Shown here: positions 14,660-51,304 of the stretch, piece by piece | How the letters are laid out: the number at the start of each line of letters is the position of its first letter | Numbering within the stretch: position 1 is the stretch's first letter | DNA from: Rhodoglobus sp. | GTDB lineage: Bacteria; Actinomycetota; Actinomycetes; Actinomycetales; Microbacteriaceae | DNA: 64,000 bases | NCBI GenBank assembly: GCA_051646885.1 | Contig: JBOFDJ010000074.1 | Coordinates: forward strand, 6,756 to 70,755 | Direction of reading: 5' to 3' | The notes under the pieces: generated by a model | Told to the model about the DNA's origin: nothing | The model's input: the letters and a program-made list of their open reading frames with translations, nothing else | Database searches by the model: none | Translations under genes and position numbers: made by a program

Positions 14660-14855
14660 TACGATTGAGTCGTTCCGATAAGTACATCCGCGCTGTGAAG
14701 TCAACGTTGACGGCGGGCTCCGAGGCCCTATTCCTGCCAGCTATTCGACAGGCCATGGACACGCCCCACGTCCATGAGAAAACACTGATGCGCTAATTGC
14801 TTCGGAATGTTGCGGCAGCCGCCTCGGTTGATGTCGTTAGGAAATGAGGGAGTTT
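14660..14855 (+). promoter_or_regulatory. Long structured leader upstream of sufB
   Basis: Putative -10 TACGAT, palindrome GTCAACGTTGAC, hairpins GGGC/GCCC and CATGGAC/GTCCATG, long-range CGACA/TGTCG. Confidence 0.35.
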
Positions 14856-16274
14856 ATGTCTGACGTACTGATCGACCGCCCAGAGCTTAGTGGCCTTGGG
14901 CAGTATGAGTTTGGGTGGTCCGACTCCGATTCCGCTGGGGCCTCTGCGCGACGCGGTATTAACGAGGAGGTGGTGGCTGACATCTCGCGCCGGAAGAGCG
15001 AGCCGCAGTCGATGCTAGACAGGCGTCTTAAGGGCCTCGAGCTGTTTCGTCGCAAGCCGATGCCAACGTGGGGGGCAGATCTCTCCGGCATTGATTTTGA
15101 GAACATTAAATATTTTGTGCGCTCTACCGAAAAACCGGCTCAGTCGTGGGAAGACCTCCCCGAAGACATCCGAAACACTTACGAGAAGCTAGGTATTCCT
15201 GAAGCAGAGCGTAAGCGTTTGGTTTCTGGCGTCGCTGCTCAGTACGAGTCGGAGGTAGTTTTTCATTCGATCAATGCTGAACTAGAGGCGCAGGGTGTGA
15301 TTTTTATGGACACCGATACTGCCTTACGTGAGCACCCCGAGTTTTTTGAAGAGTTTTTCGGTACCGTCATTCCTGCTGGCGACAACAAATTCGCGGCACT
15401 CAATACCGCAGTGTGGTCAGGAGGTTCCTTCGTTTACGTGCCGAAAGGTGTTCACGTTCAGATTCCTCTTCAGGCATATTTTCGCATCAACACCGAAAAT
15501 ATGGGCCAGTTTGAACGCACGTTGATTATTGCTGACGAGGGTTCCTATGTTCATTACATTGAAGGATGCACCGCGCCGATCTACACTTCAGACTCATTGC
15601 ACTCGGCGGTTGTCGAGATCATCGTCAAAAAGAACGCTCGTGTTCGCTATACGACTATTCAAAACTGGTCGAATAACGTCTACAACCTGGTCACCAAGCG
15701 TGCAATAGCTCACGAGGGCGCGACGATGGAGTGGGTCGACGGTAATATTGGCTCCAAAGTCACCATGAAGTATCCATCGATCTATCTTGTTGGAGAACAT
15801 GCCAAGGGTGAGACCCTCTCCGTCGCTTTTGCTGGTCCTGGGCAGCACCAAGATGCGGGTGCCAAGATGATTCATATGGCACCATACACAACGTCGTCTA
15901 TCGTGTCGAAATCAATCGCTCGAGGTGGGGGGCGCGCGGGGTACCGTGGTGAAGTGCGCGTGGATAGTAAGGCACATCACTCTGCTAACACTGTGCGCTG
16001 TGACGCTCTTCTCGTCGACACTGTTTCGCGTTCAGATACCTATCCTGCAATTGATATCAGGGTTGATGACGTGCAACTCGGACACGAGGCCACAGTGTCT
16101 CGTGTGAGTGCTGAGCAGCTTTTTTACTTACAGTCACGGGGCATGCCTGAAGATGAAGCGATGGCGATGATAGTTCGTGGTTTTATTGAGCCCATCGCTC
16201 GTGAACTTCCCATGGAATACGCTCTCGAGCTCAATAAACTCATTGAAATGAGTATGGAAGGAAGCGTCGGATGA
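14856..16274 (+). CDS. sufB: Fe-S cluster assembly protein SufB
   Basis: [34 protein letters not shown]; start at ATG behind GAGGGAG. Confidence 0.98.
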
Positions 16275-16309
16275 CCTTTCTGCGCTCGTCGAAAGGACCT
16301 CTCGGCTAG

Positions 16310-17530
16310 ATGTCGGTAGCAACACAGACTCCTCAACAACAGGGAGCCACAGCACACAGCGACGGTGGGTGGGGCCAGGCGGGATACATCCCTGTCCAAA
16401 CCAGATCGGCGCGGTTCTCATCGTTTACACATGACGATTTTGCCTCTGTCACAGGACTTGAAGCTGAATGGAAGTTGACTCCAGTTTCTCTGGTGCGGAC
16501 TCTTCTTGATGACAAGTTGAATGGCTCAGCCTATTCTGCGCACTCTGATGAGATTCCCGGTGTGAGCGTCGAGTGGGTGCCTCGGGAGGACCCCCGTGTC
16601 GGTCGTGCCGGTGTTCCCGAGGAACGGGCCTCGGCCAATGCCTGGTCGCATTGTGACCAGGTGCTGGTTGTCACCGTTACTGCGCAAGAGCACACTGATT
16701 TCACCGTGCGTCGCTCAGGTTTGAGCACTACGCCACGAGCGGCCCATACCATTATTACCGCGCGAGCCAATAGCAACGCGACGGTGATCCTTGAGTCGAC
16801 CGGATCAGCAGTGCTCAGTGAGAATATCGAGATCATCGTAGAAGAGGGTGCTCATCTCACTGTGATATCGCTTCAGGAATGGTCCGATGACGCATTGCAC
16901 TTGGCTAGCCACTTTGCCACTGTGGGACGCGCGGCTCACCTTACGCACATTGTGGTGTCACTGAGCGGCACCGTAGTGCGCGTTAATCCTTCTGTCTGTT
17001 TAGCGGGGGAGGGCTCCTCTGCCGAGTTGTACGGATTGTATTTTGCGGATGCAGGTCAGCACTTCGAACACCGCGTTTATCTGCACCATCGTGCCCAGAA
17101 CACAACAGGTCGGGTGAACTATAAAGGTGCGTTACAGGGAACAGGTGCGCGCACTGTATGGATTGGTGATGTTCTCATCGGCCCTGATGCGACAGGTACT
17201 GATAGCTACGAACAGAATCGTAACCTGGTCCTGACGGAGGGAACTAGAGCTGACTCTATTCCCAATCTTGAGATCGAGACCGGGGATATTATCGGAGCCG
17301 GTCATGCGAGTGCAAGCGGTCGTTTCGATGATGAGCAACTATTCTACTTACAGTCCCGCGGGATAACCGAGGTAGAGGCTCGTCGTCTTGTCGTCATCGG
17401 GTTCTTTTCTGAGATCGTTCAGAAGATCGACAACTCGTTTCTTCGTACCCGTTTACACAAGGCAATCGAGTCTGAGCTTGCCTTATCAACTCCCGCTATC
17501 GAGCCCATGACGACTGGAAGAGAGCAATGA
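16310..17530 (+). CDS. sufD: Fe-S cluster assembly protein SufD
   Basis: EWKLTP, YKGALQG, ADSIPNLEIETG, GHASASG, FYLQSRGI. Confidence 0.95.
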   Translation: MSVATQTPQQQGATAHSDGGWGQAGYIPVQTRSARFSSFTHDDFASVTGLEAEWKLTPVSLVRTLLDDKLNGSAYSAHSDEIPGVSVEWVPREDPRVGRAGVPEERASANAWSHCDQVLVVTVTAQEHTDFTVRRSGLSTTPRAAHTIITARANSNATVILESTGSAVLSENIEIIVEEGAHLTVISLQEWSDDALHLASHFATVGRAAHLTHIVVSLSGTVVRVNPSVCLAGEGSSAELYGLYFADAGQHFEHRVYLHHRAQNTTGRVNYKGALQGTGARTVWIGDVLIGPDATGTDSYEQNRNLVLTEGTRADSIPNLEIETGDIIGAGHASASGRFDDEQLFYLQSRGITEVEARRLVVIGFFSEIVQKIDNSFLRTRLHKAIESELALSTPAIEPMTTGREQ

Positions 17531-17859
17531 CCGCGAAACGTGTCTGCACAGTAGCAGAGCTCGAGGAAAATAAGGCTTTTCGAGTTGTGTTGGAAGGTCT
17601 TGCGATTGTTATTGTCAAGGACTCCCACGGTGTGGTGCACGCACTGGGAGATACCTGTACACACGGGGATATCTCGCTCTCGGAAGGTTTCGTCGAGGAC
17701 GAGACTATCGAGTGTTGGGCCCACGGTTCACAGTTCTCGCTCTCCACCGGAAAACCGCTTAATTTGCCGGCTTACGAGCCAGTTCCCGTTTTCGACGTTA
17801 TCGTTGATGATTCTGGTGTTGTATGCGTCGACCCGACAACCAGCACTCTGGCCTCGTGA
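17527..17859 (+). CDS. Rieske-type ferredoxin of the suf operon
   Basis: CTH...CWAHGS Rieske ligands; ATGA overlap with sufD. Confidence 0.92.
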   Translation: MTAKRVCTVAELEENKAFRVVLEGLAIVIVKDSHGVVHALGDTCTHGDISLSEGFVEDETIECWAHGSQFSLSTGKPLNLPAYEPVPVFDVIVDDSGVVCVDPTTSTLAS

Positions 17860-17894
17860 CGTCACACTCACGGCCACCTCAAAGGAAATAAGCA

Positions 17895-18659
17895 ATGTCA
17901 GTACTTGAAGTCAGAGATCTCTACGTCAGTGTCGAAACAGACCAGGGCACCAGACAGATTCTCAAGGGTGTCAATTTGAGCATCACGCAGGGTGAGATTC
18001 ACGCAATTATGGGCCCGAATGGTTCAGGGAAATCGACACTCGCCTATACGATCGCCGGGCATCCGAAATATTCTGTCGACAGTGGTTCCATCACGCTGGA
18101 TGGTGTGGACGTGCTCACGATGAGTGTTGATGAGCGTGCCCGTGCCGGTCTCTTTCTCGCTATGCAGTATCCGGTCGAGATACCAGGTGTGCGGATGGGT
18201 GACTTCCTCAGAACGGCAAAGACCGCTATTGACGGCAAAGCTCCCGCCCTTCGACCATGGATTAAAGAGGTGAATGAGGCGATGAAAGGCTTGCGGATGG
18301 ACAAGGCCTTCTCTGAGCGCAATGTCAATGAGGGCTTTTCCGGCGGGGAGAAAAAACGTCATGAGATTTTGCAGTTAGAGCTCCTCAAACCTAAGTTTTC
18401 TCTTCTTGATGAAACTGATTCTGGTCTTGATGTTGATGCGCTAAAAATCGTGGCTGAAGGAATCAATCGCGCCAAAGTTGCCAATAATCTCGGCGTTCTT
18501 CTGATCACTCACTACACTCGTATTCTGCGCTACATCACCCCGGATTTCGTGCACGTTTTTGTTGATGGTCGTGTGGCCGAACAGGGCGGGGCCGAGCTCG
18601 CTGAGCGTCTTGAGAATGAAGGCTATGATCGCTTTCTTGTTGGCCCGAGCGTAATCTAA
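17895..18659 (+). CDS. sufC: Fe-S cluster assembly ATPase SufC
   Basis: MGPNGSGKST, FLAMQYPVEIPG, FSGGEKKR, LDETDSGLD. Confidence 0.98.
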   Translation: MSVLEVRDLYVSVETDQGTRQILKGVNLSITQGEIHAIMGPNGSGKSTLAYTIAGHPKYSVDSGSITLDGVDVLTMSVDERARAGLFLAMQYPVEIPGVRMGDFLRTAKTAIDGKAPALRPWIKEVNEAMKGLRMDKAFSERNVNEGFSGGEKKRHEILQLELLKPKFSLLDETDSGLDVDALKIVAEGINRAKVANNLGVLLITHYTRILRYITPDFVHVFVDGRVAEQGGAELAERLENEGYDRFLVGPSVI

Positions 18660-18663
18660 AAGA

Positions 18664-18993
18664 ATGTCGACCACCCTTGCTCCCGCACTCTTCGATCAAG
18701 TTGAAGAGGGTCTCAAAGATGTCATGGATCCCGAACTTGGGGTAAACATTGTCGACCTCGGTCTTATTTACGATCTCAGCTGGGACGAGCACAGCTCAGC
18801 GCTCATCATTAGCATGACGCTGACATCGGCTGGTTGTCCGCTCACTGATGTCATCGAGGAACAGATCGCCCAATCGCTGGATGGCGTTGTCGATGCTTTT
18901 CGTATTAATTGGGTGTGGATGCCACCGTGGGGCCCCGAAAAGATCACAGATGACGGGCGGGACATGATGCGCGCTCTCGGTTTTTCGATCTAA
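18664..18993 (+). CDS. sufT: Metal-sulfur cluster assembly factor (SufT/DUF59)
   Basis: DPELGVNIVDLGLIY, LTSAGCP, WMPPW. Confidence 0.92.
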   Translation: MSTTLAPALFDQVEEGLKDVMDPELGVNIVDLGLIYDLSWDEHSSALIISMTLTSAGCPLTDVIEEQIAQSLDGVVDAFRINWVWMPPWGPEKITDDGRDMMRALGFSI

Positions 18994-19074
18994 AAAGCCG
19001 AGGTAGAGGCGAAAACCGCCACCGACGAGGTAGTCATCCGAGCACTCGTCTTGACCGATTCGCAAGGAGCGATA

Positions 19075-20091
19075 ATGACCACAGAGAGAATCCCCGCCAG
19101 CGACATCTTGGTTGTGGCACGTGAGCAAGTCCTCGAGCGTGGTGAGGCGCTGAGCGAAGAGCAGGTGTTACAGATTCTACAACTCGGCGATGAACGCCTT
19201 CCCGAGGCACTTCAGCTGGCACATGAAGTCCGACTGCGGTACTGCGGAGATGATGTGGAAGTGGAGGGTATCGTCTCGATAAAGACCGGAGGCTGCCCCG
19301 AGGACTGCCATTTTTGTAGCCAGTCTGGTGTTTTCGATTCTCCGGTTCGTTCCGTGTGGCTTGACATTCCTGAACTGGTCAAGGCTGCGAAGGAGACCGC
19401 GGCATCGGGCGCATCAGAGTTCTGCATCGTTGCGGCGGTTCGCGGGCCGGATATCAAACTCATGAACCAGATCAAGTTTGCTATCGACCGCATTCGCAAA
19501 GAAGTCGATATTAATATTGCCTGCTCACTGGGTATGCTCACACAACATCAAGTCGACCAACTGGCGCAGTGGGGTGTCCATCGCTACAACCATAACCTGG
19601 AGACTGCGCGCAGCTTCTTTAGCGAGGTGGTGACGACCCATACCTACGAGGAGCGCCTCGAGACATGCGAGATGGTGAGAGCTGCTGGCATGGAGTTGTG
19701 CTGTGGCGCTCTCTTGGGTATGGGAGAGTCAGTCCCGCAACGTGCAGAGCTGGCTGTTCAGCTAGCGGCCCTTTCGCCTCATGAAGTCCCGGTGAATTTT
19801 TTGAATCCACGCCCTGGGACGCCGCTCGAGGGCCAGGCCATCATGGATGGTAAAGATGCTTTGCGTGCGATCGTCGCTTTTCGTTTGGCGATGCCGCACA
19901 CCGTGTTGCGGTACGCCGGGGGGCGTGAACTCACGCTCGGTGATCTCGGGACACGCGATGGCCTCTTGGGTGGCATCAATGCAATTATCGTAGGAAACTA
20001 TCTCACCACGCTTGGGCGACCAGCGGATGCAGATCTTGACCTTCTGGTTGAGCTGAATATGCCCATTAAGGAACTTCAGAAGACTCTGTGA
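19075..20091 (+). CDS. bioB: Biotin synthase
   Basis: CPEDCHFC radical-SAM motif, YNHNLET, auxiliary-cluster ligands FCIV/IACS/ELCCG/LRYAGG; start at ATG behind AAGGAG. Confidence 0.98.
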
Positions 20092-20318
20092 CTAGGCCCT
20101 CGACTTTCTCTTCACGTTTCCGCTATTGCCAGCATTGTGGTGGGACTGATACCGCGGATGCTGTTATTGGGTCGCCGGGGCACGCATCCTGCGCGATTCG
20201 ACTGCGGCTTGAACCACCGCGATACTGTTCTGATTGCGGTCGACGCTTGGTCGTTCAGGTTACCCCGCTGACCTGGGTGGCACAGTGTTCACGGCACGGT
20301 AAGACGACTTACCCGTGA
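20088..20318 (+). CDS. bsaP: Biotin synthase auxiliary protein (BsaP/Rv1590-like)
   Basis: 76 aa with CQHCG...H..C and [25 protein letters not shown]; GTGA-coupled to bioB. Confidence 0.85.
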
Positions 20319-21616
20319 TGTCGCTCATCGAAAGGGATCGTGCCGTGTTGTGGCATCCGTATTCCGCTCCGAACTCGGCAGCACCGTTATGGGAGGTGAT
20401 GAGTGCGCAGGGAATTCGCTTTAAACTGCGTGATGAATCTGGTGGACGACACGATGTTATCGACGCAATGTCGTCCTGGTGGTGTGCGATTCATGGCTAC
20501 CGCAATCCCGTGCTGGATGCTGCCGCCCACCACCAGCTGGGCCAGTTCAGCCATGTGATGTTCGGAGGGCTTACCCACTCTCCAGCGGTTCATCTTGCCG
20601 AGCAACTGAACGGCATCACCCCGCGCGGCCTTGACCGTGTATTTTTCGCGGACTCAGGTTCGGTTTCGATTGAGGTCGCTCTTAAGCTGGCGGTTCAATA
20701 TCAGGCATCGCTGGGTTTTTCTCGACGGCAGCGTGTGCTGAGCATTCGCGGCGGCTATCACGGCGATACGGCTGGCGCGATGGCAGTGTGCGATCCGATC
20801 AACGGAATGCATTCAGAATTTTCAGGAATGCTTGCGCAGCAAATTTTCGCACCACGGCCACCAGCTGCTGCACATGCTACCGACGATGATATTGTGGCGT
20901 GGGCGCAGGAGGTTGCCGACATCGCTCGGAGATCGAGTGTGCAGCTCGCCGCCATCATTGTCGAACCGGTGCTTCAGGGCGCTGGCGGTATGTTTATCTA
21001 TCCCGCGGAGTGCCTACAACACCTCCGTGCTATCGCCGATGAACACGGCCTGCTTCTCATCGTCGATGAAATTGCCACCGGATTTGGTCGTACAGGAACC
21101 TTTTTTGCCGTTGAGCACGCCGGTGTCACTCCCGACATTATGTGTGTAGGTAAGGCGCTCACCGGGGGTTACCTCAGTCTGGCAGCGATGCTGTGCACCG
21201 CTGCTGTGGCCAAAGCAATCACCGAGGGGCCGGTGGCCGCGCTGCTGCACGGGCCAACTTTTATGGCTAATCCGCTGGCCTGTGCTATAGCCACCGCGAG
21301 CCTTGAGCTTCTTCGCGAGATGAGATGGAGTGAATCCGTTGCCCGCATCGAAACTGAGCTTGCTGCTGGCCTGGCTCCGGCCCAAAAAATCGCTGCGGTA
21401 CGTGATGTGCGCACCATTGGTGCGGTGGGAGTGATTCAGCTCAATAGCACTGTAGATGTCCCCGCGATGACGCGCGCGGCTCTTCGCCGTGGTGTGTGGC
21501 TACGCCCATTTCGAGACCTCGTCTATACGATGCCGCCCTACATCAGTGAAACTGATGATATTAACAGCATCACCGCGGCGATGGTAGGGGCCGTGCAGGA
21601 GGTTTCAGCATCATGA
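20315..21616 (+). CDS. bioA: Adenosylmethionine-8-amino-7-oxononanoate transaminase
   Basis: [38 protein letters not shown] lysine in [18 protein letters not shown]. Confidence 0.97.
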
Positions 21617-22773
21617 CCGGGCCAACGATAAACGCGTGGATTGATCGTCAGGCTACCGTTCGCATCCAGCGCGCCACCGAGCGTTCGCTCCGTGTTCGGA
21701 CATCGGATGCCACTACGATTGATCTCGCCAGTAACGATTATCTGGGTCTCGTTCGGGATGAACGACTCGTTCGGGCTGCACAGGAAGCCTTAGAACAGTG
21801 GGGGACCGGCGCAACAGCATCTCGCCTCGTCGCGGGCACAACAGCACTGCACGATGATCTTGAGCAGTCACTCGCCCTGCTCACCGGGATGGATACTGCA
21901 CTGGTCTTCTCTTCGGGATACCTTGCCAATATCGGAGTGATCACTGCGCTCGGCGGCCCGGGTACCGGAATTTTTTCGGATGACCATTGTCATGCATCCA
22001 TCGTTGATGGTCTCAGGCTCAGCCGGTCGCCTGCACACAGTTTTGCTCATAATGATCTTGACGATCTGGAACGGTTATTGAGAAATCGGGCTCAACCACG
22101 GGCGCTCGTCATTGTGGAATCTGTGTACAGCGTCCTCGGTGATGCTGCCCCTCTAGGGGAGCTTCTTGCCCTGGTTGAACGCTACGACGCGATTCTCCTG
22201 GTTGATGAAGCGCATAGTCTTGGGGTGACGGGTGGCGGGCGAGGTTCAGTATTTGCAGCAGGGTTGGCTGGTCATCCTCATGTTATTGCCACGGCAACAC
22301 TCTCAAAAGCTTTGGCAAGTCAAGGCGGTGCCGTATTGGCGTCGGAGAAAATACGTGAGCATCTGATTAACCGCTCGCGCACATTTATTTTTGATACTGG
22401 ACTTGCACCAGCTTCTGCCGCAGCCGCACGCGCGGCAGTCGAGATTATTAACAGTGAACCGTGGCGCAGCGATCAGGTGCACAGGAATAGCGCACTACTC
22501 GAGAGTTACATTCAGGCGGCAACAGAAGGTCAACACCGATACGAACCCGGTGCGATGGGTGCCGTTCGTTCGATTCAACTGCGTGATGCCGCCAGCGCTG
22601 CGCTCGCGGCAGGTTTGGCTCTCGACGCTGGAGTGTGGGTGGGATGTTTCCGCCCGCCTTCGGTACCTGACGGTATCTCTCGACTGAGGGTGACGGCGCG
22701 GGCATCGCTGACCATCCCCGAGATCGCGCGAGCGAGCACGGTGCTTGCCGAGGTCTTGGCGGCGACGCGGTGA
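21613..22773 (+). CDS. bioF: 8-amino-7-oxononanoate synthase
   Basis: DLASNDYLGL, FSSGYLAN, HASIVDG, VDEAHSLG, TLSKAL, RPPSVP. Confidence 0.96.
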   Translation: MTGPTINAWIDRQATVRIQRATERSLRVRTSDATTIDLASNDYLGLVRDERLVRAAQEALEQWGTGATASRLVAGTTALHDDLEQSLALLTGMDTALVFSSGYLANIGVITALGGPGTGIFSDDHCHASIVDGLRLSRSPAHSFAHNDLDDLERLLRNRAQPRALVIVESVYSVLGDAAPLGELLALVERYDAILLVDEAHSLGVTGGGRGSVFAAGLAGHPHVIATATLSKALASQGGAVLASEKIREHLINRSRTFIFDTGLAPASAAAARAAVEIINSEPWRSDQVHRNSALLESYIQAATEGQHRYEPGAMGAVRSIQLRDAASAALAAGLALDAGVWVGCFRPPSVPDGISRLRVTARASLTIPEIARASTVLAEVLAATR

Positions 22774-23447
22774 CACTTCCCCCTATTATCCTGATTACCG
22801 GCACGGACACCGGTGTCGGCAAAACGGTGACCGCTGCCGCTCTGGCCTCCCACCTCACGCAACAGGGTTATGTCACCGCGGTGTACAAGCCCTGTCAAAC
22901 CGGTGCGCGACAGGGCGATTCGGATGCGCTCGAAATCGCTCGGCTTGCAGCTATCACGACTGTGGAGGTCGGTGTTACATTGACCGAACCGATGGCACCG
23001 GTTGCCGCGGCCAAGATTGATGGGGTCTTGCTTCCTGTTCTGAAGCAACATCGCCAAAAAATTCTGCAGCTTGCGGTTGCGTGCGATCATGTGATCGTCG
23101 AGGGTGCGGGTGGTCTACTAGTGGAACTGGATCACGACGGCGCAACCATGGCAGATCTTGCCCAAAGTTTGGGGAGTGTTGCTGGGATTATTCTCGTCGT
23201 TCGAGCGGCTCTGGGAACCCTCAACCACACGGCTTTGACCCGGGAGGCGATTGCACGACGACAGATCCGGCTGCTTGGTCTTGTTATTGGGTCGTGGCCC
23301 ACGTCACCTGGAGCAATTGAGTTGAGCAATCGGGAGCAATTCGACTCTGCTCTTATCGCCTCGATTCCAGCCAATGCAGCGCAACTCTCTCCGCGGGAGT
23401 TTCGAGAACAAGCACAGTTATGGTGTGAAGGGTTCGCTGATGCCTGA
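22770..23447 (+). CDS. bioD: Dethiobiotin synthase
   Basis: ITGTDTGVGKT, KPCQTG, VEGAGG, LGTLNHT. Confidence 0.97.
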   Translation: MTLPPIILITGTDTGVGKTVTAAALASHLTQQGYVTAVYKPCQTGARQGDSDALEIARLAAITTVEVGVTLTEPMAPVAAAKIDGVLLPVLKQHRQKILQLAVACDHVIVEGAGGLLVELDHDGATMADLAQSLGSVAGIILVVRAALGTLNHTALTREAIARRQIRLLGLVIGSWPTSPGAIELSNREQFDSALIASIPANAAQLSPREFREQAQLWCEGFADA

Positions 23448-24573
23448 TTCCTCCGGACAGCTCGATGCCTCGGTCGCGACCAAATATCACATCGTTGATG
23501 ACCCTCGACTCGTGCGTGAAGTCTTTAATCGTGCTGACAGTTTTGCAGCGTCTAATGCACTCACAGCAGTGACGCCACTCACTGCCCAGAGCCTTCGTGT
23601 TCTCACCGAGGTGGGTTTTGCGCTCCCACCGGTTTTAGCCAATAATGACGGCGATTCACATCGTGGAATTCGTCGCGTGGTCAGTAGTTTTTTCACCCCG
23701 GCAATCGTGGCGGGCATCGAGCCACGGATCCGTGAGTTGGCGCGGGTTGCTGTAGCATGTGCATCCGAGCTGCTGGAGACTCAGGGCTCGGTTGATTTGG
23801 CGCAGACGGTGACGGCAGAGCCTCCGGCAATCCTCATGCTCGACATGCTGGGCTTGCCGACTACCGACCTTAAGCTCCTTAAGGCGTGGAGCAGAGATTC
23901 CCTTGAGCTGTTTTGGGGCTGGCCAGATAGTGAGCGTCAATGTGACCTCGCCCATAGTGCTGCCGAGTTTTACGAATGGCTGTGTGATCTCGTTCTGGTT
24001 TCTCTCAGCGATGGTTCCGACAACCTATTCCGAGCGTTATCTCAGCATGGCCTGTCGCAGGAAGAGGTCTGCTCGATTGGTTATTTTCTTCTCATCGCCG
24101 CTCAAGAAACCACCTCCCAGCTTGCCAGTACCGCTCTGATCAGAGTGCTCGATGGTACCGTTGGTCCTTCTTGGGGGTTGACCGCTGACCGGAAGGTTGC
24201 GACAGCAGCTATTCGTTATGTCTTGGCTCACGACTCTTCGGGCCCAACAGCTCGCCGGGTTGCCCGTCACGATATCGAGTTTGATGGGGCGCTGATACCT
24301 GCTGGTGCAGAGATACTACTTGAACTTACGGGTCATCACGGTCCTGGTGCGACGGAAAGTTCTTACAGCATCGCCTTTGGTTCTGGGATGCATCGATGTA
24401 TCGGAGCCAGGCTGGCTGAGCTAGAAGCAACGGTAATTCTCCAGGAGACCGCTACAGGTCTTCCACAGATAGGTCTGATCAACTCGGTAACACCATGGAG
24501 AAGACTGCTGTCATTCCGGGCCCCTGAGTCGGTAGTTGTTGAGCAACCCCAGGAACTACAATATTCTTTTTAG
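23440..24573 (+). CDS. Divergent cytochrome P450, last gene of the biotin operon
   Basis: Heme motif FGSGMHRCIG, I-helix AAQETT; ATG at 23440 overlaps the bioD stop by 8 nt. Confidence 0.9.
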   Translation: MPDSSGQLDASVATKYHIVDDPRLVREVFNRADSFAASNALTAVTPLTAQSLRVLTEVGFALPPVLANNDGDSHRGIRRVVSSFFTPAIVAGIEPRIRELARVAVACASELLETQGSVDLAQTVTAEPPAILMLDMLGLPTTDLKLLKAWSRDSLELFWGWPDSERQCDLAHSAAEFYEWLCDLVLVSLSDGSDNLFRALSQHGLSQEEVCSIGYFLLIAAQETTSQLASTALIRVLDGTVGPSWGLTADRKVATAAIRYVLAHDSSGPTARRVARHDIEFDGALIPAGAEILLELTGHHGPGATESSYSIAFGSGMHRCIGARLAELEATVILQETATGLPQIGLINSVTPWRRLLSFRAPESVVVEQPQELQYSF

Positions 24574-26232: not shown

Positions 26233-27078
26233 TCACGATCTTTCTGAGTCCAGGATCGAATCTTCGATTTCGGCATCCTTGAGGGGTTTTGATGCGTTAC
26301 GACGGTCTCTGATCGTGGCCCGCTGGCGCTCTTGAGGGTGGTCAGCATTTTTGATTCGATATTCTTGACGCACAGCCCACCCCAGTCCGAGGAAGGCCAA
26401 GAGAGCGAACACAAGCCACTGTAGGGCGTATGACAGATGCGGTCCTTCGTCGGGGATCGGTGCCGTCATCGGCAACGGTCGTGGTGCAGCTTCTGGGTCT
26501 TCGCGGGAGAGCAGTCCGTACACGCCGCTATACATTGGTTTGTCGAGGGTGGCAGAGATCATCGGCACATTGATGGTGGCAATCTGGCCTTCGGGCGCTG
26601 ATCTTCCCGCAATCAGCGGTTCGCTAGCTCTCAGCCGCGCCGTCACGGTGACTTCGCCAGTGGGGACCGCGGGGATCAGATCCGGTTCATCCTGTTTATT
26701 GCCGACCGGGAGCCAGCCTCGATTGATAAGAAAAATTTTTCCATCAGCACGCTCAAGTGGAACAAGTTGTTCGAATCCTGGGCTTCCTTCTCGGGGACGT
26801 CCGCGGACTAGAAGTTCTTCGCTATGGAGGTACCGTCCGGTGATCGTCACGGGACGCCACTGGTCATCCTCGGTGAAACTCTCGAGCCCCGGAAGCACTT
26901 CATTCAGGGGTTGTGGCGTTTTTGTCCAGTTAGCAGCTACCCGCTCGATTTCAGCGCGAGCCTCTTCCCGGCGAGTAAGCTGCCATTGCGATAGGCCAAT
27001 GCAGCCCACGACAAACACGATCACCAACGCTAAATAGCCCATCCAGTTTCGAGAAAAAACAAAGCTCCAACGCTTCAC
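26233..27078 (-). CDS. SURF1 family protein
   Basis: N-terminal TM then WQLTRR, LINRGW, GPHLSYALQW and a C-terminal TM. Confidence 0.9.
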   Translation of the reverse strand: MKRWSFVFSRNWMGYLALVIVFVVGCIGLSQWQLTRREEARAEIERVAANWTKTPQPLNEVLPGLESFTEDDQWRPVTITGRYLHSEELLVRGRPREGSPGFEQLVPLERADGKIFLINRGWLPVGNKQDEPDLIPAVPTGEVTVTARLRASEPLIAGRSAPEGQIATINVPMISATLDKPMYSGVYGLLSREDPEAAPRPLPMTAPIPDEGPHLSYALQWLVFALLAFLGLGWAVRQEYRIKNADHPQERQRATIRDRRNASKPLKDAEIEDSILDSERS

Positions 27079-27305
27079 GATGGCACCATATCGAGTGTGT
27101 GACCGAGGTCAGTTACGAGCACAGGAAAGCCACGGGACGCAAGATAATCACGCAAGTATTCAGTGTGTTCGGTACAGGCCAGCCAGATTTTTACTCGATC
27201 AACCGGGTGAATTCGCGGATTACGCCAATTGACTTTAGCGGTCGCCGACTGATGACACCCGGCGCGCGAGCATTGTACGTTAGCTGTCGTTTCGATGCCC
27301 ATCAT
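27075..27305 (-). CDS. Small conserved actinobacterial hypothetical protein (Cys/His motifs)
   Basis: CSRAGC, WRNPRIH, WLACTEH..YL..YL..RGF; overlaps the SURF1 start. Confidence 0.75.
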   Translation of the reverse strand: MMGIETTANVQCSRAGCHQSATAKVNWRNPRIHPVDRVKIWLACTEHTEYLRDYLASRGFPVLVTDLGHTLDMVPS

Positions 27306-27318
27306 GACCACAAACCGA

Positions 27319-27603
27319 TCACCGTTCATCCTTGTCTGAGGCGGTGTGTTCGGCAAGAACAATAGACCCTGGACGAATAACGGTGTCGGACTCCCGCGCT
27401 CCTACGTTGGCGAGGATGACGGCTATGTAGGGCAGTACAATGGCGGCCATAACGCAGACGAGTAGCCACCACCCCTGTGCAAAGAAGCAGGCAATAACAC
27501 AAGCGACCCGGATGCTCATTGCAATGCCGTAGCGGATAACTCTGCGCTGTCGATCATCGTCAGGGGACTGAGGAAGCGCCGTTATCGACTGTTTTTGTTT
27601 CAC
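27319..27603 (-). CDS. DUF3099 membrane protein
   Basis: SITALP...RQRR..RY..AMSIRVAC...A..LPYIAV..AN pattern. Confidence 0.85.
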   Translation of the reverse strand: MKQKQSITALPQSPDDDRQRRVIRYGIAMSIRVACVIACFFAQGWWLLVCVMAAIVLPYIAVILANVGARESDTVIRPGSIVLAEHTASDKDER

Positions 27604-27649
27604 TGTGCCTGCTTCGCTCTGATTATCGAATATACGCTAGTACAGAGCC

Positions 27650-27675
27650 AGGCTGGAACTCACTTGTTCCAGCCT
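27650..27675. promoter_or_regulatory. 10-bp perfect inverted repeat between divergent DUF3099 and fabG
   Basis: AGGCTGGAAC-N6-GTTCCAGCCT, overlapping a minus-strand TAGGCT -10-like box. Confidence 0.45.
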
Positions 27676-27708
27676 ACGTCGCCACTCCTGCGGCGATAAG
27701 CTGATTGT

Positions 27709-28443
27709 ATGAGCGCCACTGCAACGTCCAGCGAATTTTTTCCCAGGACTGTCCTGGTCACCGGAGGAAATCGCGGAATTGGATGGGCGATTGCCGAAGA
27801 GTTTGTGAGATTAGGGCACCGGGTAGCGGTAACAGCTCGCGCCGGAACTGGACCTCAAGGGTGCCTTACCGTCATCGCAGATGTTACTGACCCCTCTAGT
27901 ATTGATGCGGCTTTCACGGAGGTGGAGGCCAAACTCGGGCCGGTAGAGGTGGTGATCGCCAATGCTGGGATCACTCGCGATACCTTGTTGATCAGGATGA
28001 CCGAGGAAGACTTTACTGACGTGATTGACACGAATCTGTCGGGGACATTCAGGGTTGTTAAGCGAGCCTCAAAGAACATGATGAGGGCCCGTTTTGGGCG
28101 CATCATTTTGGTGTCCAGTGTTGTTGGTCTCCTCGGCTCCGCTGGCCAGGTAAATTATTCTGCCTCCAAGAGTGGTCTTATTGGCATGGCTCGTTCTCTG
28201 ACCCGCGAATTAGCCGGTCGAGGGATCACCGCTAATGTCGTTGCTCCCGGGTTCATTGAAACCGATATGACCGCTGAACTGCCGCAGGAGCAACAAAAAG
28301 AGTATGTCAAGCAGATTCCCGCAGGACGTTTCGCTAGCCCGATCGAGGTGGCGCGTATCGTGAGGTGGCTTGCTAGCGACGAGGCGAGCTACATTTCTGG
28401 GGCGGTTATTCCTATTGACGGAGGCCTCGGAATGGGCCACTAG
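27709..28443 (+). CDS. fabG: 3-oxoacyl-ACP reductase (FabG1/MabA-like SDR)
   Basis: TGGNRGIG, NAGITRD, YSASK, NVVAPGFIETDMT. Confidence 0.93.
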   Translation: MSATATSSEFFPRTVLVTGGNRGIGWAIAEEFVRLGHRVAVTARAGTGPQGCLTVIADVTDPSSIDAAFTEVEAKLGPVEVVIANAGITRDTLLIRMTEEDFTDVIDTNLSGTFRVVKRASKNMMRARFGRIILVSSVVGLLGSAGQVNYSASKSGLIGMARSLTRELAGRGITANVVAPGFIETDMTAELPQEQQKEYVKQIPAGRFASPIEVARIVRWLASDEASYISGAVIPIDGGLGMGH

Positions 28444-34327: not shown

Positions 34328-34518
34328 AAGATCAGGCTAGGGCTGGTGGACCGTAGCGTCGTGCAGGCTCGCTGTGGGAGGGTGACGGGATGTCGGCAAT
34401 GCTGTGATGGATCAGGTAATAAAATCTCCGCCATAAAAAATATTGCACAGTCAAACAGCTGTCTCGGTAGGGTTTCTTGTGATTTTCAATCTCTGATTGA
34501 CTACATAGAATCATGTGG

Positions 34519-35424
34519 ATGACCGTTGATTCTCCCTATGCTGCTCTGCTCTCCGATACTCCGGTACGCAAGGCTTCAGTGGATGTGCTCGGCAGCCGAA
34601 CACACTACTGGGAGTATGGGCCTTCGGAGTCCGTTATCACGCTGGTGTTGGTTCATGGATACCGTGGAGAGCATCATGGACTGGAGCCGGTGGTTGCTCA
34701 TCTTCGCGGGCTGCGGATCCTCTGTCCAGACCTACCAGGATTCGGCGAATCGACGCCCCTGGTAGGGGTTCGACATGATATTGCGGGCTATGTTGTCTGG
34801 CTGCGCGGTTTTGTTGATGCGCTCTCACTCGGAAGCACTGTCGTGATTCTCGGGCATTCATTTGGGTCTATCGTCGTCTCGTCAGCTGTTGCCAACGGTC
34901 TGAATGCTTCACGGCTTATTTTTGTCAATCCGATTGCAGGACCGGCTCTCGAAGGTCCCAACGCAATAATGAGCCGTCTCACTCTGCTCTACTACCGAAC
35001 TTGCCGGGCTTTACCTGAGCGCCTCGGTCGGAGACTGTTGAGTAGCTGGCTGATGGTGCGCACTATGAGTGTGTTTCTCGTCCAGACAAAAGATAAGGCA
35101 CTCCGGAGATGGATTCATGACCAGCACCATACGTACTACAGCCGCTATGCCAATTGTGACACGGTGATCGAGGGTTTTGAGGCATCCATCGGATCAGATA
35201 TGAGTATGTTTGCGGCAAAAATCACACCTCCCAGCATCTTGATTGGTGCGGATCGAGACCCCATAACGTCAGTAAAATCATTACACGCCTTGAAGCGACT
35301 ATTTCCCCATGCTCGGCTCGAAATCTTGACTCATGTCGGTCACCTCGTGCATTACGAAAAACCGCGCGCGACTGCAGAACTGATCGTCGATTTTCTCGGC
35401 GAGGGAAGGGTGGCTGACCTGTGA
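34519..35424 (+). CDS. Alpha/beta hydrolase
   Basis: HGYRGEH, DLPGFG, nucleophile GHSFG, GHLVHYE; start at ATG 34519, 7 nt after TAGAAT. Confidence 0.9.
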   Translation: MTVDSPYAALLSDTPVRKASVDVLGSRTHYWEYGPSESVITLVLVHGYRGEHHGLEPVVAHLRGLRILCPDLPGFGESTPLVGVRHDIAGYVVWLRGFVDALSLGSTVVILGHSFGSIVVSSAVANGLNASRLIFVNPIAGPALEGPNAIMSRLTLLYYRTCRALPERLGRRLLSSWLMVRTMSVFLVQTKDKALRRWIHDQHHTYYSRYANCDTVIEGFEASIGSDMSMFAAKITPPSILIGADRDPITSVKSLHALKRLFPHARLEILTHVGHLVHYEKPRATAELIVDFLGEGRVADL

Positions 35425-35531
35425 AGATTATCCTTAGATCCCAGAGGTCAAGCATCGCTTGCACCCATGATCAGATATCTGACACCCAACAAAAAACCAT
35501 GCAATACCATGGGGACAACCCGGAAATCTAG
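35421..35531 (+). pseudogene. Possible vestigial 5' fragment of a glycosyltransferase gene
   Basis: 36-codon ORF MKIILRSQ...HDQIS with a GTGA overlap on the hydrolase stop; resemblance to a GT N-terminus is from recall only. Confidence 0.25.
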
Positions 35532-35711
35532 CTTCAGAAAATCTTATTCCCCGCGACCGGGGGCGATTCACACAGCAGGCAAAACCCCCGCCTGGGTTGT
35601 CGTTTTAAAGTAGAAAGTCTTCGAAGAAGCTATGAGCAGAAAGAACTGCATAAACGTTCTTGCAGAGTCAACATTCGGGTCGAGTTTCAGTGGTCCAGAG
35701 TCGAGTGTCGC

Positions 35712-36896
35712 ATGAGCCGGTACCTAATTGTGGCGGACTACTCGCTCTCCTATCTGGGGGGAGCGCAGACGGCTATTGTGCGCCAAGCCTCTGCCTTGGC
35801 GGCGGGCGGGCATACAGTAGGAGTGGTCGCGCCGCAAACCGATACTTTCGCTTCAGAGTTGCGCAGGGCAGGCGTCGTAGTCATTGACCCTCCCTTTTTT
35901 CGCGTGATTCCTGGGATTCCAGTCCCGATATTTCTCGCACACGCACCTTTGCTTAGGTGGATGACCCAGAAACTCGAGGGTTTTGTTCCCGATGTAGTGC
36001 TCATTCACTCAGAATTTGGGCTTTCTGTTGCTGCAATGCGTGTCGCTCAGGAACGAGGAATTCTTGTCATTCATACTATTCATACTTTCTTTTTTCAGGC
36101 TTCCCCATGGCTAGGTTTCCTGAGCCCACTTGCCGGAATTGGCCACTGGTTCGCAACCCGCATTAAGGCACCTCGCATCCGACTCGCGAAGAGACCCTTT
36201 GATAGTGCCCTCCGACGAATGACACTAGCCATCGCTTTAAAGGCAGACTGGGTGCTGTCACCCTCACATCACCAAGCCGCGCGACTTCGCGAGGCAGGTG
36301 TTCGCCGTATAAGTGTCGTGTCTAACACCACTTCTCCTGAAGCAGTATCGAGTCACGCTCTGCACCGTTCAGTGTCGGACGGTCCACTGCGCCTCGTTTG
36401 GGCGGCGCGGTTCGCACCCGAGAAACGTCTCGCCGTGGCACTAGAGGCTGTTGCACTTGCAAATGATTTGGCTGGGAAAGAAGCAATCACCTTGCAGGTA
36501 GCGGGTGGATCTGGCCCTGCGACACCTGGAGTGACTTTTCACGGTCGGATCTCAGAATCACGTGTGCGAGAACTTTTAGCCTCCGCAGATGCGGCATTGA
36601 TCACGTCTGTTGGTTTTGATAATCAGCCCATGATTGCCTTGGAGGCATTCGCCAGGGGAAAGCCAGTCATCGTCAGCGACCCAGTCCTCGCTCAAGAGTT
36701 CAAAGGGCCTGCTTTAGAGGCGAGTGGGCCTTCTGGGGCTGACTTATCTGCACTGCTACTCGAACTCGTAGCGAGGCCGGATCGTCTCACTGCTGCTGCG
36801 GCTGCCGCGAGTTTCCGTGCCGAGCAACAAACAGCAGAGGCCCACACTCAGGCCATAGAGTCGCTTGTTTTAAGTCTTAGAGATCGTGCCCATTGA
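35712..36896 (+). CDS. GT-B glycosyltransferase (family 4-like)
   Basis: GGAQT, IHSEFG, IHTIHT, RFAPEKR, DNQPMIALEA. Confidence 0.88.
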   Translation: MSRYLIVADYSLSYLGGAQTAIVRQASALAAGGHTVGVVAPQTDTFASELRRAGVVVIDPPFFRVIPGIPVPIFLAHAPLLRWMTQKLEGFVPDVVLIHSEFGLSVAAMRVAQERGILVIHTIHTFFFQASPWLGFLSPLAGIGHWFATRIKAPRIRLAKRPFDSALRRMTLAIALKADWVLSPSHHQAARLREAGVRRISVVSNTTSPEAVSSHALHRSVSDGPLRLVWAARFAPEKRLAVALEAVALANDLAGKEAITLQVAGGSGPATPGVTFHGRISESRVRELLASADAALITSVGFDNQPMIALEAFARGKPVIVSDPVLAQEFKGPALEASGPSGADLSALLLELVARPDRLTAAAAAASFRAEQQTAEAHTQAIESLVLSLRDRAH

Positions 36897-40149: not shown

Positions 40150-41241
40150 GTGACTGCTATAGAATCCGCCCGCATCATTAAGACCGGTCCGCGTGGCATC
40201 GCAAATCCTATTTCAGAGTTTTCTTCCTTGCTTCATACTGTTCGCGATGCTGGCCTATTACGGCGGCGTAAGGGATTTTATGCTGCTACTTTTAGCGTCA
40301 TTACTCTTGCCATGATTGGTGCCTGGGTGGGTTTCGCTCTGTTGCATCACACGTGGTATCTGCTGCTCATCGCCGCTGGTATGGGAATCATTTTTACCCA
40401 ATACGCTTTCATCACCCATGAACTCTCACACCGTCAGGTTTTCGCTTCGGGAAAGATCAATGACTTCGTGGGGCGCATCATGGCCGACCTAGTGGTGGGC
40501 ATTAGTTACTCCTGGTGGATGAGTAAACATTCACGTCACCACGCTAACCCCAATACGGTTGGCAAAGATCCCGATGTTGAAACGGACTTCATTATTTTCC
40601 AGGCGGAAGAGGCCGCTGGACTCGCCGGAGTGAAGAAATTTTTCGCGCAGCGACAGGGATACCTATTTTTTCCTGCGCTTCTGCTTGAGGGCATCAATCT
40701 GCATCGTCACGCTTTTGTGACGGTGCTCTCGAAAAGAAAAGTTGATAAGCGTGCCCTGGAGATTGTCCTCCTGGCCGTACGTAATGTCGGTTACCTCACG
40801 ATCTTGTTCACCTTCATGCCGCTCGGAATGGCCTTTGCTTTCCTTGGCGTGCAGCTCGCAATTTTTGGCTTGTATATGGGTGCGTCTTTTGCGCCAAACC
40901 ACGTTGGCATGCCGATTTTGACTCAGGGCTCTACCGTCGATTTCTTGCGCCGGCAGGTGCTGACGAGTCGTAATATTCGGGGTGGACATGTGATGAACCA
41001 CTTTATGGGTGGGCTCAACTATCAGATAGAGCATCACCTATTCCCCACCATGGCGCGACCGCACCTCCGGCGCGCCAGCGAGATGGTTCGTGAGTATTGC
41101 GCTGCTCGAGGAATTCTTTACACCCAAGTCGGACTGGGGGCAGCTTATGGGAAGGTTGTCACTTACCTGAATGATGTGGGCCGCACTGTCGACCCTTTCA
41201 ACTGTCCAGTGGCAGCGAGGGGAGGCTACAGCGCACGGTAA
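40150..41241 (+). CDS. Membrane fatty acid (acyl-CoA/lipid) desaturase
   Basis: His boxes HELSH, HSRHH, QIEHH. Confidence 0.9.
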   Translation: MTAIESARIIKTGPRGIANPISEFSSLLHTVRDAGLLRRRKGFYAATFSVITLAMIGAWVGFALLHHTWYLLLIAAGMGIIFTQYAFITHELSHRQVFASGKINDFVGRIMADLVVGISYSWWMSKHSRHHANPNTVGKDPDVETDFIIFQAEEAAGLAGVKKFFAQRQGYLFFPALLLEGINLHRHAFVTVLSKRKVDKRALEIVLLAVRNVGYLTILFTFMPLGMAFAFLGVQLAIFGLYMGASFAPNHVGMPILTQGSTVDFLRRQVLTSRNIRGGHVMNHFMGGLNYQIEHHLFPTMARPHLRRASEMVREYCAARGILYTQVGLGAAYGKVVTYLNDVGRTVDPFNCPVAARGGYSAR

Positions 41242-48984: not shown

Positions 48985-49135
48985 CGCGTTCCTCACTGTA
49001 GTGAATGGCTAGTTTTCTGAAAAACAATGGCGCACTTATCTCTAGTGTAAGGAGCAGTGCTAGGCAAGCCGCAGTAGAAAATACTGCGACTTGCGATATT
49101 GTGTGAGCAGTTGGGATAGCAACGGGGGATTTGGC

Positions 49136-50584: not shown

Positions 50585-51304
50585 GTGCCGGAGTGTATCC
50601 ATGGACTTGAAATTCCAGTATGCGATAGCTGTTTTCCCCAAGCCGTTCCTCAGCGACCGGTTCTCGCGCGTTCGAGCTCACGCTCCCGAGTCAGTGCCCC
50701 AACGCCGGTCTCCCGAAAGTCTTATAACTCCGGGGCTCAACGGATCTATCACGTCACGCATATCAATAATCTGGAACCGATCCTGGCGCGAGGAGCTCTT
50801 ATCGCCGAGGCGGTTCCCGTTGTTGATCTGAGTACCGAACTGACTCGAGAGCTTCGTCGTTCAGCCCAGGTTACTGCGGAGGGCTCGATGGTCAGCGAGT
50901 ATGTCGCTTTCTCTCTCAGCCCCCACGCTACTTTTTGGGAGCGACTGCGAACCGGGGCTCACGACGAGACACGGTGGTCGTCGGCTGCCCGGTCAGCGGC
51001 ATCCGTCGACTTCGTGTTTCTCGTGAGCACGGTGGGAATTCTGGGTTCTGACGCTGTGATCGCAGATGGCGATGCCGCCCACAGCCTTACACGTTTCGCG
51101 AGGGGGGAATCCGCGACCAGAATGCTCGAACAGCTGTATAGCAGCGATCAACTCCAGGAAGCCGAGGTTCTCTGCCCAACCTCCGTTCCCTTCGGGTCTG
51201 TGCAGCTCATTGGGGTGGCTAATAATCTGGTCCGAGATCGCGTCAAGAAACTCACAACGACGAAGGTGGTGGTCTATCCTCCATGGTTTCAGATAACCGA
51301 GTAG
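50585..51304 (+). CDS. DarT-like (DUF4433) ADP-ribosyltransferase family protein with N-terminal Cys/His motif
   Basis: IYHVTHINNL..IL..G.L, EYVAF, FLVST, DGDAA, catalytic-position AEVL, IGV, C-terminal PPWF align with DarT motifs. Confidence 0.8.
   Translation: MPECIHGLEIPVCDSCFPQAVPQRPVLARSSSRSRVSAPTPVSRKSYNSGAQRIYHVTHINNLEPILARGALIAEAVPVVDLSTELTRELRRSAQVTAEGSMVSEYVAFSLSPHATFWERLRTGAHDETRWSSAARSAASVDFVFLVSTVGILGSDAVIADGDAAHSLTRFARGESATRMLEQLYSSDQLQEAEVLCPTSVPFGSVQLIGVANNLVRDRVKKLTTTKVVVYPPWFQITE

Follow-up and report, generated by a model that had tools for sequence, protein, structure and literature searches.

The early step of biotin synthesis is a variable and incompletely mapped part of the pathway, lying ahead of BioF, the consumer of a pimeloyl thioester. 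A stretch of 64,000 nucleotides from Rhodoglobus sp. (contig JBOFDJ010000074.1; the whole stretch analysed is called the window below) carries a biotin operon whose last gene encodes a cytochrome P450, which raises the question of whether this protein supplies the thioester, and by what kind of reaction. A survey published in December 2025 recognises four routes to pimelate, namely BioC/BioH, BioI/BioW, BioZ and BioE, and other reviews and primary papers to late 2025 name no further one. In the literature that we searched, which left subscription-only work outside, the pimelate step has no gene assigned to it in these bacteria, and we found no description of a P450 in actinobacterial housekeeping bio operons, of BioF-P450 fusions, or of a P450 family lacking both the ExxR motif and the meander.

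Our best reading is that the window P450 would be a functional analogue of Bacillus BioI that comes from a different P450 lineage. The link to the biotin pathway is strongly supported, and the protein very likely has its role in biotin synthesis, either with BioF or immediately ahead of it. The model as a whole, in which a BioI-like, O2-dependent oxygenase forms the pimeloyl group and supplies it to BioF, we consider likely.

Linkage of the P450 to biotin genes and to BioF

The gene order bioB-bsaP-bioA-bioF-bioD-P450, all on the plus strand (window 19051-24573; Table 1), was read from the open reading frame (ORF) listing and its translations. Four of the stop/start junctions overlap by 4 nt each, with bsaP overlapping on both sides, and bioD and the P450 gene share an 8-nt overlap (ATGCCTGA), the bioD stop TGA (23445-23447) falling within the P450 start region and the sequence GAAGGG lying 7 nt upstream of the P450 ATG. 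These coordinates bear out the first-pass annotation, which had placed the P450 in a bio operon whose genes overlap at their stop and start codons. BioB, BsaP, BioA and BioD score above the NCBIfam/Pfam cutoffs. BioF does not do so for TIGR00858 (366.5 bits, under the equivalog cutoff of 426.45); it matches Aminotran_1_2 at 3.9e-52 and is 50-63% identical to the bioF products of related loci. BsaP functions as an auxiliary protein of biotin synthase (PMC11099021).

Relatives of the P450 are widespread. A scan of 185,579 species-representative genomes found at least 580 that encode one, among them Arthrobacter, Paenarthrobacter, Pseudarthrobacter, Sinomonas, Kocuria/Rothia, Microbacteriaceae, Knoellia, Kribbella and Luteococcus, and the best 80 loci were analysed. 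A protein search with the window P450 gave 793 matches, the best non-self match being 65% identical; those with names come mostly from Arthrobacter, Paenarthrobacter, Pseudarthrobacter, Sinomonas, Pengzhenrongella and Pseudolysinimonas, and public annotation calls the homologues merely 'cytochrome P450'. The P450 gene adjoins bioD in 75 of the 80 best loci and lies between bioF and bioD in the other 5. Homologues are tied to bio operons in every one of these nearest loci, which span Micrococcaceae, Microbacteriaceae, Knoellia, Kribbella and uncultured Actinomycetota. When all ORFs of the 80 loci were clustered, no conserved genes around the P450 emerged other than the bio genes.

The neighbourhood itself varies. 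Loci with the order bioA-bioF-P450-bioD carry another type of BioB, only 32-34% identical to that of the window, and have no BsaP match (L066, L068, L071 and L073); the P450 is therefore independent of the type of BioB/BsaP. The possibility that bioF and the P450 gene are fused in these loci was discarded, as they are separate overlapping genes in L066, L068 and L071 and separate genes with a gap of ~200 nt in L073; in L069 bioF ends at the contig edge. In several Kribbella loci bioB-bsaP stands 1.7-3.5 kb from bioA, with the P450 still beside bioD. Compared with the window proteins, the P450s of the related loci have a median identity of 54.0%, the BioD proteins one of 55.1% and the BioF proteins one of 60.1%. 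The P450, being close to BioD in this measure, is therefore under purifying selection, with constraint comparable to that of bona fide bio enzymes.

The unit is also found on plasmids. On a conjugative Arthrobacter plasmid (L081; NZ_CP084557.1 29658-35334), bioB-(bsaP)-bioA-bioF-bioD-P450 lies between two IS110 transposase genes (26723-27955 and 35522-36727) and looks, from this layout, to be mobile as a module; bsaP is missing from the gene table of the plasmid collection, which is itself incomplete. A 1.35-Mb Arthrobacter replicon bears the identical operon arrangement.

Gene fusions also tie the P450 to BioF. A search of the representative library returned P0124, a protein of 803 aa with a BioF domain at its N terminus and a P450 of the short-meander family (described below) at its C terminus. 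A search with P0124 then recovered at least 18 clusters of such in-frame BioF(N)-P450(C) fusions, 751-831 aa long, from NCBI, JGI, ENA and Logan assemblies; they occur in Kocuria/Rothia-like bacteria, Luteococcus and others, and include those of Luteococcus sp. H138 and a Kocuria metagenome-assembled genome (MAG). One of them, P0281, occurs on 12 contigs in the order bioA-bioF::P450-bioD, and the Luteococcus fusion has no bioB nearby. The same search returned BioF fused to BioD, BioA, BioB and BioW. A fusion of the last kind, BioWF of Corynebacterium amycolatum, has been characterised (PMC9544090), and it likewise joins a supplier of the pimeloyl thioester to BioF; it differs in that BioW is an ATP-dependent pimelate-CoA ligase needing free pimelate and in that the order is W-F rather than F-P450. 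That BioF is fused to the P450 as it is to BioW, a known pimeloyl-CoA supplier, fits a role of the P450 as a pimeloyl supplier. As a separate observation, P0287 of Rothia koreensis (609 aa) is a fusion without the first ~155 P450 residues, in which BioF runs straight into '...DSLELFWGWP'; decay of this copy may explain it, or else an artefact of assembly or annotation.

In a second type of fusion the two domains are swapped, P450(N)-BioF(C), and the P450 is a canonical CYP107/BioI-like one, which groups with Bacillus BioI (bootstrap 75). An example is L087 5187-7571, in the context bioA-P450::bioF-bioD-bioB-bsaP, and P0288, P0295, P0296, P0298, P0302 and P0304 are others. Since the two types have different P450s and different domain orders, partnerships of P450 and BioF arose at least twice in actinobacteria. 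These sequences also suggest that BioI-type enzymes exist in actinobacteria, unlike the restriction given in the December 2025 survey, which confines BioI to Bacillaceae/Staphylococcaceae.

The fusions bear as well on whether the P450 might serve another biotin step, either by supplying electrons to BioB/BsaP or repairing them, or by modifying dethiobiotin or biotin. Predicted co-transcription with bioB-bsaP in most loci would fit such a role, yet the fusion partner of the P450 is always BioF and never BioB, the P450 persists next to the other BioB type, and it is found apart from bioB both in the Luteococcus fusion and in the Kribbella loci with a distant bioB-bsaP. We hold a role in another step to be very improbable.

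Motifs and fold of the P450

The Glu-Arg-Arg triad, generally thought to stabilise the heme-binding core, and the meander are treated as near-universal among P450s. The window protein keeps the heme-thiolate loop FGSGMHRCIG and the I-helix AAQETT, as the first-pass annotation had noted, and two further claims made there, that the K-helix ExxR is lacking and that the meander has been lost in a protein of only 377 aa, proved correct. In a profile alignment to CreJ (AVDEVLRYSG) YVLA replaces ExxR, being aligned onto EVLR so that Y takes the place of E and A that of R, and 14 residues separate the last beta strand from the FG with which the heme loop opens, compared with 25-26 in BioI and 30 other canonical P450s. 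Pfam PF00067 covers the heme loop alone (residues 305-335; 42.9 bits against a cutoff of 22.8), a match which marks the sequence as evidently far from the average P450.

Conservation was assessed in an alignment of 27 close relatives (A1) and in one of 86 sequences (A3). Invariant in A3 are F313, G314, G316, H318, C320, G322, A220, T225, H74, R78, R272 and R273, and Q222 and T224 are conserved in at least 90% of its sequences. The I-helix Q-E-T-T is invariant in A1; E223 and R319 are invariant only among these close relatives, E223 being in neither of the A3 lists. We take H74, R78, R272, R273 and R319 to be candidate propionate ligands, presumably at the sites where P450s usually bind the heme propionates.

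An AlphaFold2 (AF2) model built from the 86-sequence alignment reached a predicted local distance difference test (pLDDT) score of 89.4 and a predicted template modelling score (pTM) of 0.90. The top Foldseek matches of this model are all P450s, with template modelling (TM) scores of 0.83-0.85 to CreJ. The heme loop seemed disordered in a model from the 27 sequences (pLDDT <50 at residues 298-321), which was discarded as an effect of alignment depth in view of the deeper model. The idea that this is a decayed gene is contradicted by the conservation of the Cys loop, the I-helix and the candidate propionate ligands, the BioD-like identity and the confident AF2 model. On the alignments, the loss of ExxR and the meander is to be seen as a family trait, not decay.

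A motif table of the relatives is split accordingly in two: canonical relatives, MdbD (see below) included, have ExxR and a 26-residue meander, whereas members of the bio-operon clade have 8-17 residues there. ExxR is absent or partial throughout the short-meander clade, and no meander Arg is conserved. The K-helix reads RHVLA in most Micrococcaceae, GETLR in P0124 (with both E and R kept), QTLR in P0281 and HEVLS in P0277. In the simplest reading of these sequences the meander deletion would have come first and the drift of ExxR second: the ancestor of the clade would have deleted ~12 meander residues including the Arg, and the K-helix E and R, which would have lost their constraint because the meander Arg of the triad was already deleted, would have drifted afterwards. 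Exactly at the lost meander (A1 columns ~370-396), homologues from Arthrobacter, Paenarthrobacter and Pseudarthrobacter carry variable Gly/Pro/Ala-rich low-complexity inserts of up to ~28 residues (e.g. GPGARGPGAKGPGARG); the window protein has none.

ExxR-deviant P450s are known from CYP157 of Streptomyces (Rupasinghe et al. 2006, as cited in PMC3599690), which, so far as that citing account describes it, is also a conserved bacterial P450 family without consensus ExxR that is tied to fixed gene neighbours. Compared by motif description, CYP157 keeps the Glu and has only the Arg changed (EVLW / EQSLW), whereas the window protein has lost both together with the meander.

Relatives and proposed function

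BioI (CYP107H1) of Bacillus subtilis (3EJB/3EJD/3EJE) is the obvious comparison, being likewise a P450 of a biotin operon with a similar overall fold. By the accepted account it cuts long-chain acyl-ACP (ACP being acyl carrier protein) between C7 and C8 and so yields pimeloyl-ACP (PMC12704756, PMC9302846). It differs in having a canonical ExxR (VEECLRY) and a 25-residue meander. BioI and the window family share 19-21% identity; BioI takes about the 38th rank in the profile search (92.9 bits), and the TM score to the BioI-ACP complexes is 0.77. CreJ of Corynebacterium glutamicum (5GWE/5XJN) scores 163.5 bits (E 5e-47), and CreJ and the CYP116B heme domains are the closest solved structures (TM 0.81-0.85, 23-27% identity); in these the K-helix and the meander are canonical and a link to bio genes is lacking, and their substrates we take to be unrelated.

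In a bootstrapped neighbour-joining tree, in which the BioI sequence is that of PDB 3EJB residue for residue, the short-meander family joins its sister group, made up of ExxR-retaining sequences of Streptomyces and Pseudonocardiales, in one clade apart from CreJ/CYP116-like sequences and from BioI (bootstrap 93). The short-meander sequences fall together with a bootstrap of 64, and the window protein is placed with Micrococcaceae and Microbacteriaceae with one of 92. BioI groups instead with the P450(N)-BioF(C) fusions. Direct orthology to BioI was rejected on the profile scores (92.9 bits, against 163.5 for CreJ) and the separate clades, and the view of the first-pass annotation that the P450 is distinct from BioI stands on the ~20% identity, the profile ranking and the tree. 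The line for a CYP family is drawn at 40% identity. The window protein is well under it relative to BioI of CYP107, and it also falls below it relative to P0412 of S. lydicus in the sister group (36% identity, E 1e-58).

The last of these relatives leads to a pathway with genetic data. The P0412 locus reads bioA-bioD-bioB-P450, followed by convergent genes for an 8-amino-7-oxononanoate (AON) synthase, a ketosynthase (KS) and an ACP, and matches the published table of mdbA-G gene for gene (PMC13336041). From the species name and this exact gene order we infer that P0412 is MdbD, there being no accession match. MdbD is the counterpart of MkpG, and deletion of mkpG abolishes alpha-methyl-KAPA (KAPA being 7-keto-8-aminopelargonic acid); MkpG is proposed to make 6-methylpimelate oxidatively for the BioF-like MkpD (PMC13336041, 2026). 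Both share with the window protein one P450 clade, neighbours for a BioF-type AON synthase and bioA/bioD/bioB, and the motifs LELFWG, GYFLLIAGQ(E/T)TT, TWRR and LLSF(Q/R)AP, and MkpG is genetically needed for the acyl moiety that MkpD condenses with alanine. MdbD differs in that it keeps ExxR (AEEMLRR) and a full 26-residue meander and sits with a dedicated ACP and KS in an antimetabolite secondary-metabolite cluster, whereas the window family belongs to a housekeeping bio operon and neither the window nor any of the 80 loci was found to hold a dedicated ACP or KS. Four gene contexts of the sister clade were inspected, and in three of them, including those of Kutzneria and Streptantibioticus cattleyicolor, a BioF-like gene adjoins the P450. 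P0147 (538 aa), of the same ExxR-retaining clade, has a C-terminal ACP domain (PF00550, E 3.9e-12), which hints that the wider clade may use acyl chains bound to a carrier protein. Both in concept and in phylogeny, the 2026 work provides a close precedent from secondary metabolism.

The same precedent raises the possibility that the window P450 occupies this position in the pathway with different chemistry, oxidising a C7 acyl thioester (heptanoyl-ACP or -CoA) at its terminal methyl or, in a variant, omega-oxidising a short intermediate of fatty-acid synthesis, by way of alcohol and aldehyde to the acid, so that the pimeloyl thioester results. By our own reading of the published labelling of mkp, a +4 Da shift from d8-valine fits an iso-branched C8 chain in which one terminal methyl has been oxidised to a carboxylate, and short chains are built in the sister clade by ACP/KS pairs dedicated to this. 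Such pairs are lacking in the window operon and its 80 relatives, however, odd-chain C7 acyl-ACP is not normal in fatty-acid synthesis, and 2-methylbutyryl starters are also used in mkp, which requires C-C cleavage (PMC13336041). Terminal oxidation is unlikely in our view, if still worth keeping in mind.

In the preferred model of a pimeloyl-forming oxygenase, the P450, whose gene ends the operon and is translationally coupled to bioD, would receive electrons from a housekeeping ferredoxin or flavodoxin system, which we assume because none is encoded in the operon. As a heme-thiolate enzyme it would oxidise a fatty-acyl chain, most likely ACP-bound, at C7/C8, and successive oxygenations would lead to C7-C8 cleavage, or to full oxidation of the terminal C7, giving a pimeloyl thioester. 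BioF would then condense this thioester with L-alanine to KAPA, and BioA, BioD and BioB/BsaP would complete biotin. The earlier proposal of a P450 route to pimelate separate from BioI thus gains support from the bio linkage, the BioF fusions and the kinship with MkpG/MdbD.

Genes of other pimelate routes were also looked for. Among all ORFs of at least 150 aa in the window there is no candidate for bioC, bioH or bioW, and a tblastn search for BioW gave no match in the window or in 88 related loci (1.73 Mb), in agreement with what had been stated for the window at first pass. The window's only alpha/beta hydrolase (34513-35424) was rejected as BioH at 39.8 bits against a cutoff of 207.

Several points weigh against a pimeloyl-forming oxygenase, some of them concerning the enzyme and others its genetic context. 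With the Glu-Arg-Arg triad gone, heme incorporation is an assumption, and for every member of the short-meander clade the enzymology, from heme binding and substrate through C-C cleavage chemistry and product to the redox partner, is what we infer from comparison. The chemistry of MkpG is itself a proposal, without in vitro demonstration. No ferredoxin or reductase is conserved near the P450 in the ORF clustering of the 80 loci, and a Cys-motif scan of the six frames for a redox partner returned out-of-frame noise only. These features, together with the BioF fusions, could also be accommodated by a P450-fold protein with no productive heme that acts as a structural or allosteric subunit of BioF, comparable to EryCII/DesVIII, and there is a weak match to TIGR04515, the family of P450-derived glycosyltransferase activators (36.3 bits against a cutoff of 343). 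The glycosyltransferase-activator class is not known to keep a Cys ligand, whereas the Cys is retained here; across the 86 sequences there is little or no variation in this ligand and the greater part of the loop around it, in the I-helix pair or in the basic residues at the propionate sites, as expected for a working oxygenase, and the ExxR-retaining relative MkpG is needed to form an acyl moiety. A non-catalytic partner therefore seems improbable to us.

As to the genetic context, the absence of bioC, bioH and bioW is a result for the 64 kb of the window, and BioC/BioH, BioW, BioZ or BioE may be encoded elsewhere in these genomes. Bacillus BioI is dispensable where BioW is present (PMC9302846), and membership of an operon is therefore no proof of a main route. 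Plasmid pYJN5-2 of Paenarthrobacter sp. YJN-5 (L082 8983-10125) bears an intact member of the family outside any bio cluster, among pyrimidine/hydantoin-utilisation genes, behind those for an NCS1 transporter, a dihydropyrimidinase and an M20 hydrolase, and in the sister clade P0473 of S. chartreusis has no bio neighbour. The pYJN5-2 copy is altered at otherwise invariant positions (FFTP to FLMP, AELEA to AELVA), and may be a drifting or re-purposed duplicate. Such stand-alone copies would be natural if the P450 were an operon passenger outside biotin synthesis, for instance a xenobiotic or lipid hydroxylase that came to lie downstream of bioD, but linkage in 80 of 80 loci from several families and with differing gene orders, the recurrent in-frame fusions with BioF and the joint move between IS110 copies make a passenger hardly credible.

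More broadly, we lean towards the view that in a large clade of Actinomycetota a non-BioI P450 is what makes the pimelate part of biotin, that this enzyme works without the Glu-Arg-Arg triad and the meander, and that it also operates as a BioF-P450 bifunctional protein leading from fatty acyl to KAPA. If true, the missing pimelate step would be assigned in a large set of actinobacteria from soil, skin and water, and, taken with the CYP107-type P450-BioF fusions, P450-based pimelate formation would have arisen at least twice. A naturally selected P450 family without ExxR and the meander would also offer a direct test of the purpose of the triad, and the BioF-P450 fusions, as candidates for single proteins that turn fatty acids into KAPA, could serve biotin production strains.

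The operon and its surroundings

Table 1 Genes of the biotin operon and motifs of the P450 in the window.
Feature	Position	Strand	Remarks
bioB (biotin synthase)	19051-20091	+	TIGR00433 348 bits; Radical_SAM + BATS
bsaP (biotin synthase auxiliary protein)	20088-20318	+	NF052237 74.8 bits, cutoff 39
bioA (7,8-diaminopelargonic acid (DAPA) aminotransferase)	20315-21616	+	TIGR00508 535 bits
bioF (8-amino-7-oxononanoate synthase)	21613-22773	+	TIGR00858, Pfam Aminotran_1_2
bioD (dethiobiotin synthase)	22770-23447	+	TIGR00347 120.6 bits
Cytochrome P450, short-meander bio-operon-linked clade, 377 aa	23440-24573	+	
I-helix AAQETT, residues 220-225	24097-24114	+	Acid-alcohol pair for O2 activation
K-helix AIRYVLAHDS, residues 257-266	24208-24237	+	Hidden Markov model (HMM) alignment to CreJ, motif table
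Meander remnant HHGPGATESSYSIA, 14 residues	24334-24375	+	PERF-type Arg gone
Heme-thiolate loop FGSGMHRCIG, residues 313-322, Cys320	24376-24405	+	

The longest ORF of bioB starts at a TTG (19051). The ATG at 19075 is preceded by AAGGAG and, judged by this, is likely to be the true start. In the spacer between sufT and bioB, just upstream of the bioB ribosome-binding site, lies a 6-bp inverted repeat, GACGAG-N15-CTCGTC (19024-19050), which may be an operator or a hairpin. A promoter scan found no sigma-70-like promoter, and its terminator-like matches were at chance level, making the scan uninformative.

The operon stands in a core-genome region with gap-pgk-tpi, pentose-phosphate genes, ctaB and ctaA, sufB-sufD-Rieske-sufC-DUF59, the bio genes, an ABC-F ATPase, SURF1 and a FabG-like reductase. 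The region as a whole is syntenic with that of a MAG of Pseudolysinimonas sp. (L001), the proteins being 63-90% identical and SufB, SufC and the ABC-F protein reaching 80-90%. By this synteny the source is probably a relative of Pseudolysinimonas within the Microbacteriaceae; the G+C content of the window is ~55%. The suf cluster (14844-18993, plus strand) comprises sufB, sufD, a Rieske ferredoxin gene (17527-17859), sufC and DUF59/SufT, with no sufS or sufU between sufC and sufT. It is separated from the bio operon by 81 nt, with equal layout in Pseudolysinimonas L001, and read-through from the Fe-S assembly operon into bioB, which encodes an Fe-S enzyme, is conceivable. The Rieske ferredoxin was considered as a partner of the P450 and set aside, as it is a member of the suf operon with no specific link to the P450.

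Two genes downstream of the operon concern fatty-acyl chemistry, yet neither is conserved beside the P450 in other genomes. One, 3 kb away, encodes a FabG1-like 3-oxoacyl-ACP reductase (27709-28443, plus strand; 355.6 bits against a cutoff of 420), and the other, 16 kb away, a membrane fatty-acid desaturase (40150-41241, plus strand). Elsewhere in the window, a gene for a DarT-like single-stranded DNA ADP-ribosyltransferase (50585-51304, plus strand; 58 bits with Pfam, 64.6 bits with PADLOC DarT) has no DarG/macrodomain antitoxin gene adjacent to it; it follows a Ser/Thr kinase gene with a GAF domain (49091-50491) and overlaps that of an Eis-like GNAT acetyltransferase (51283-52599).

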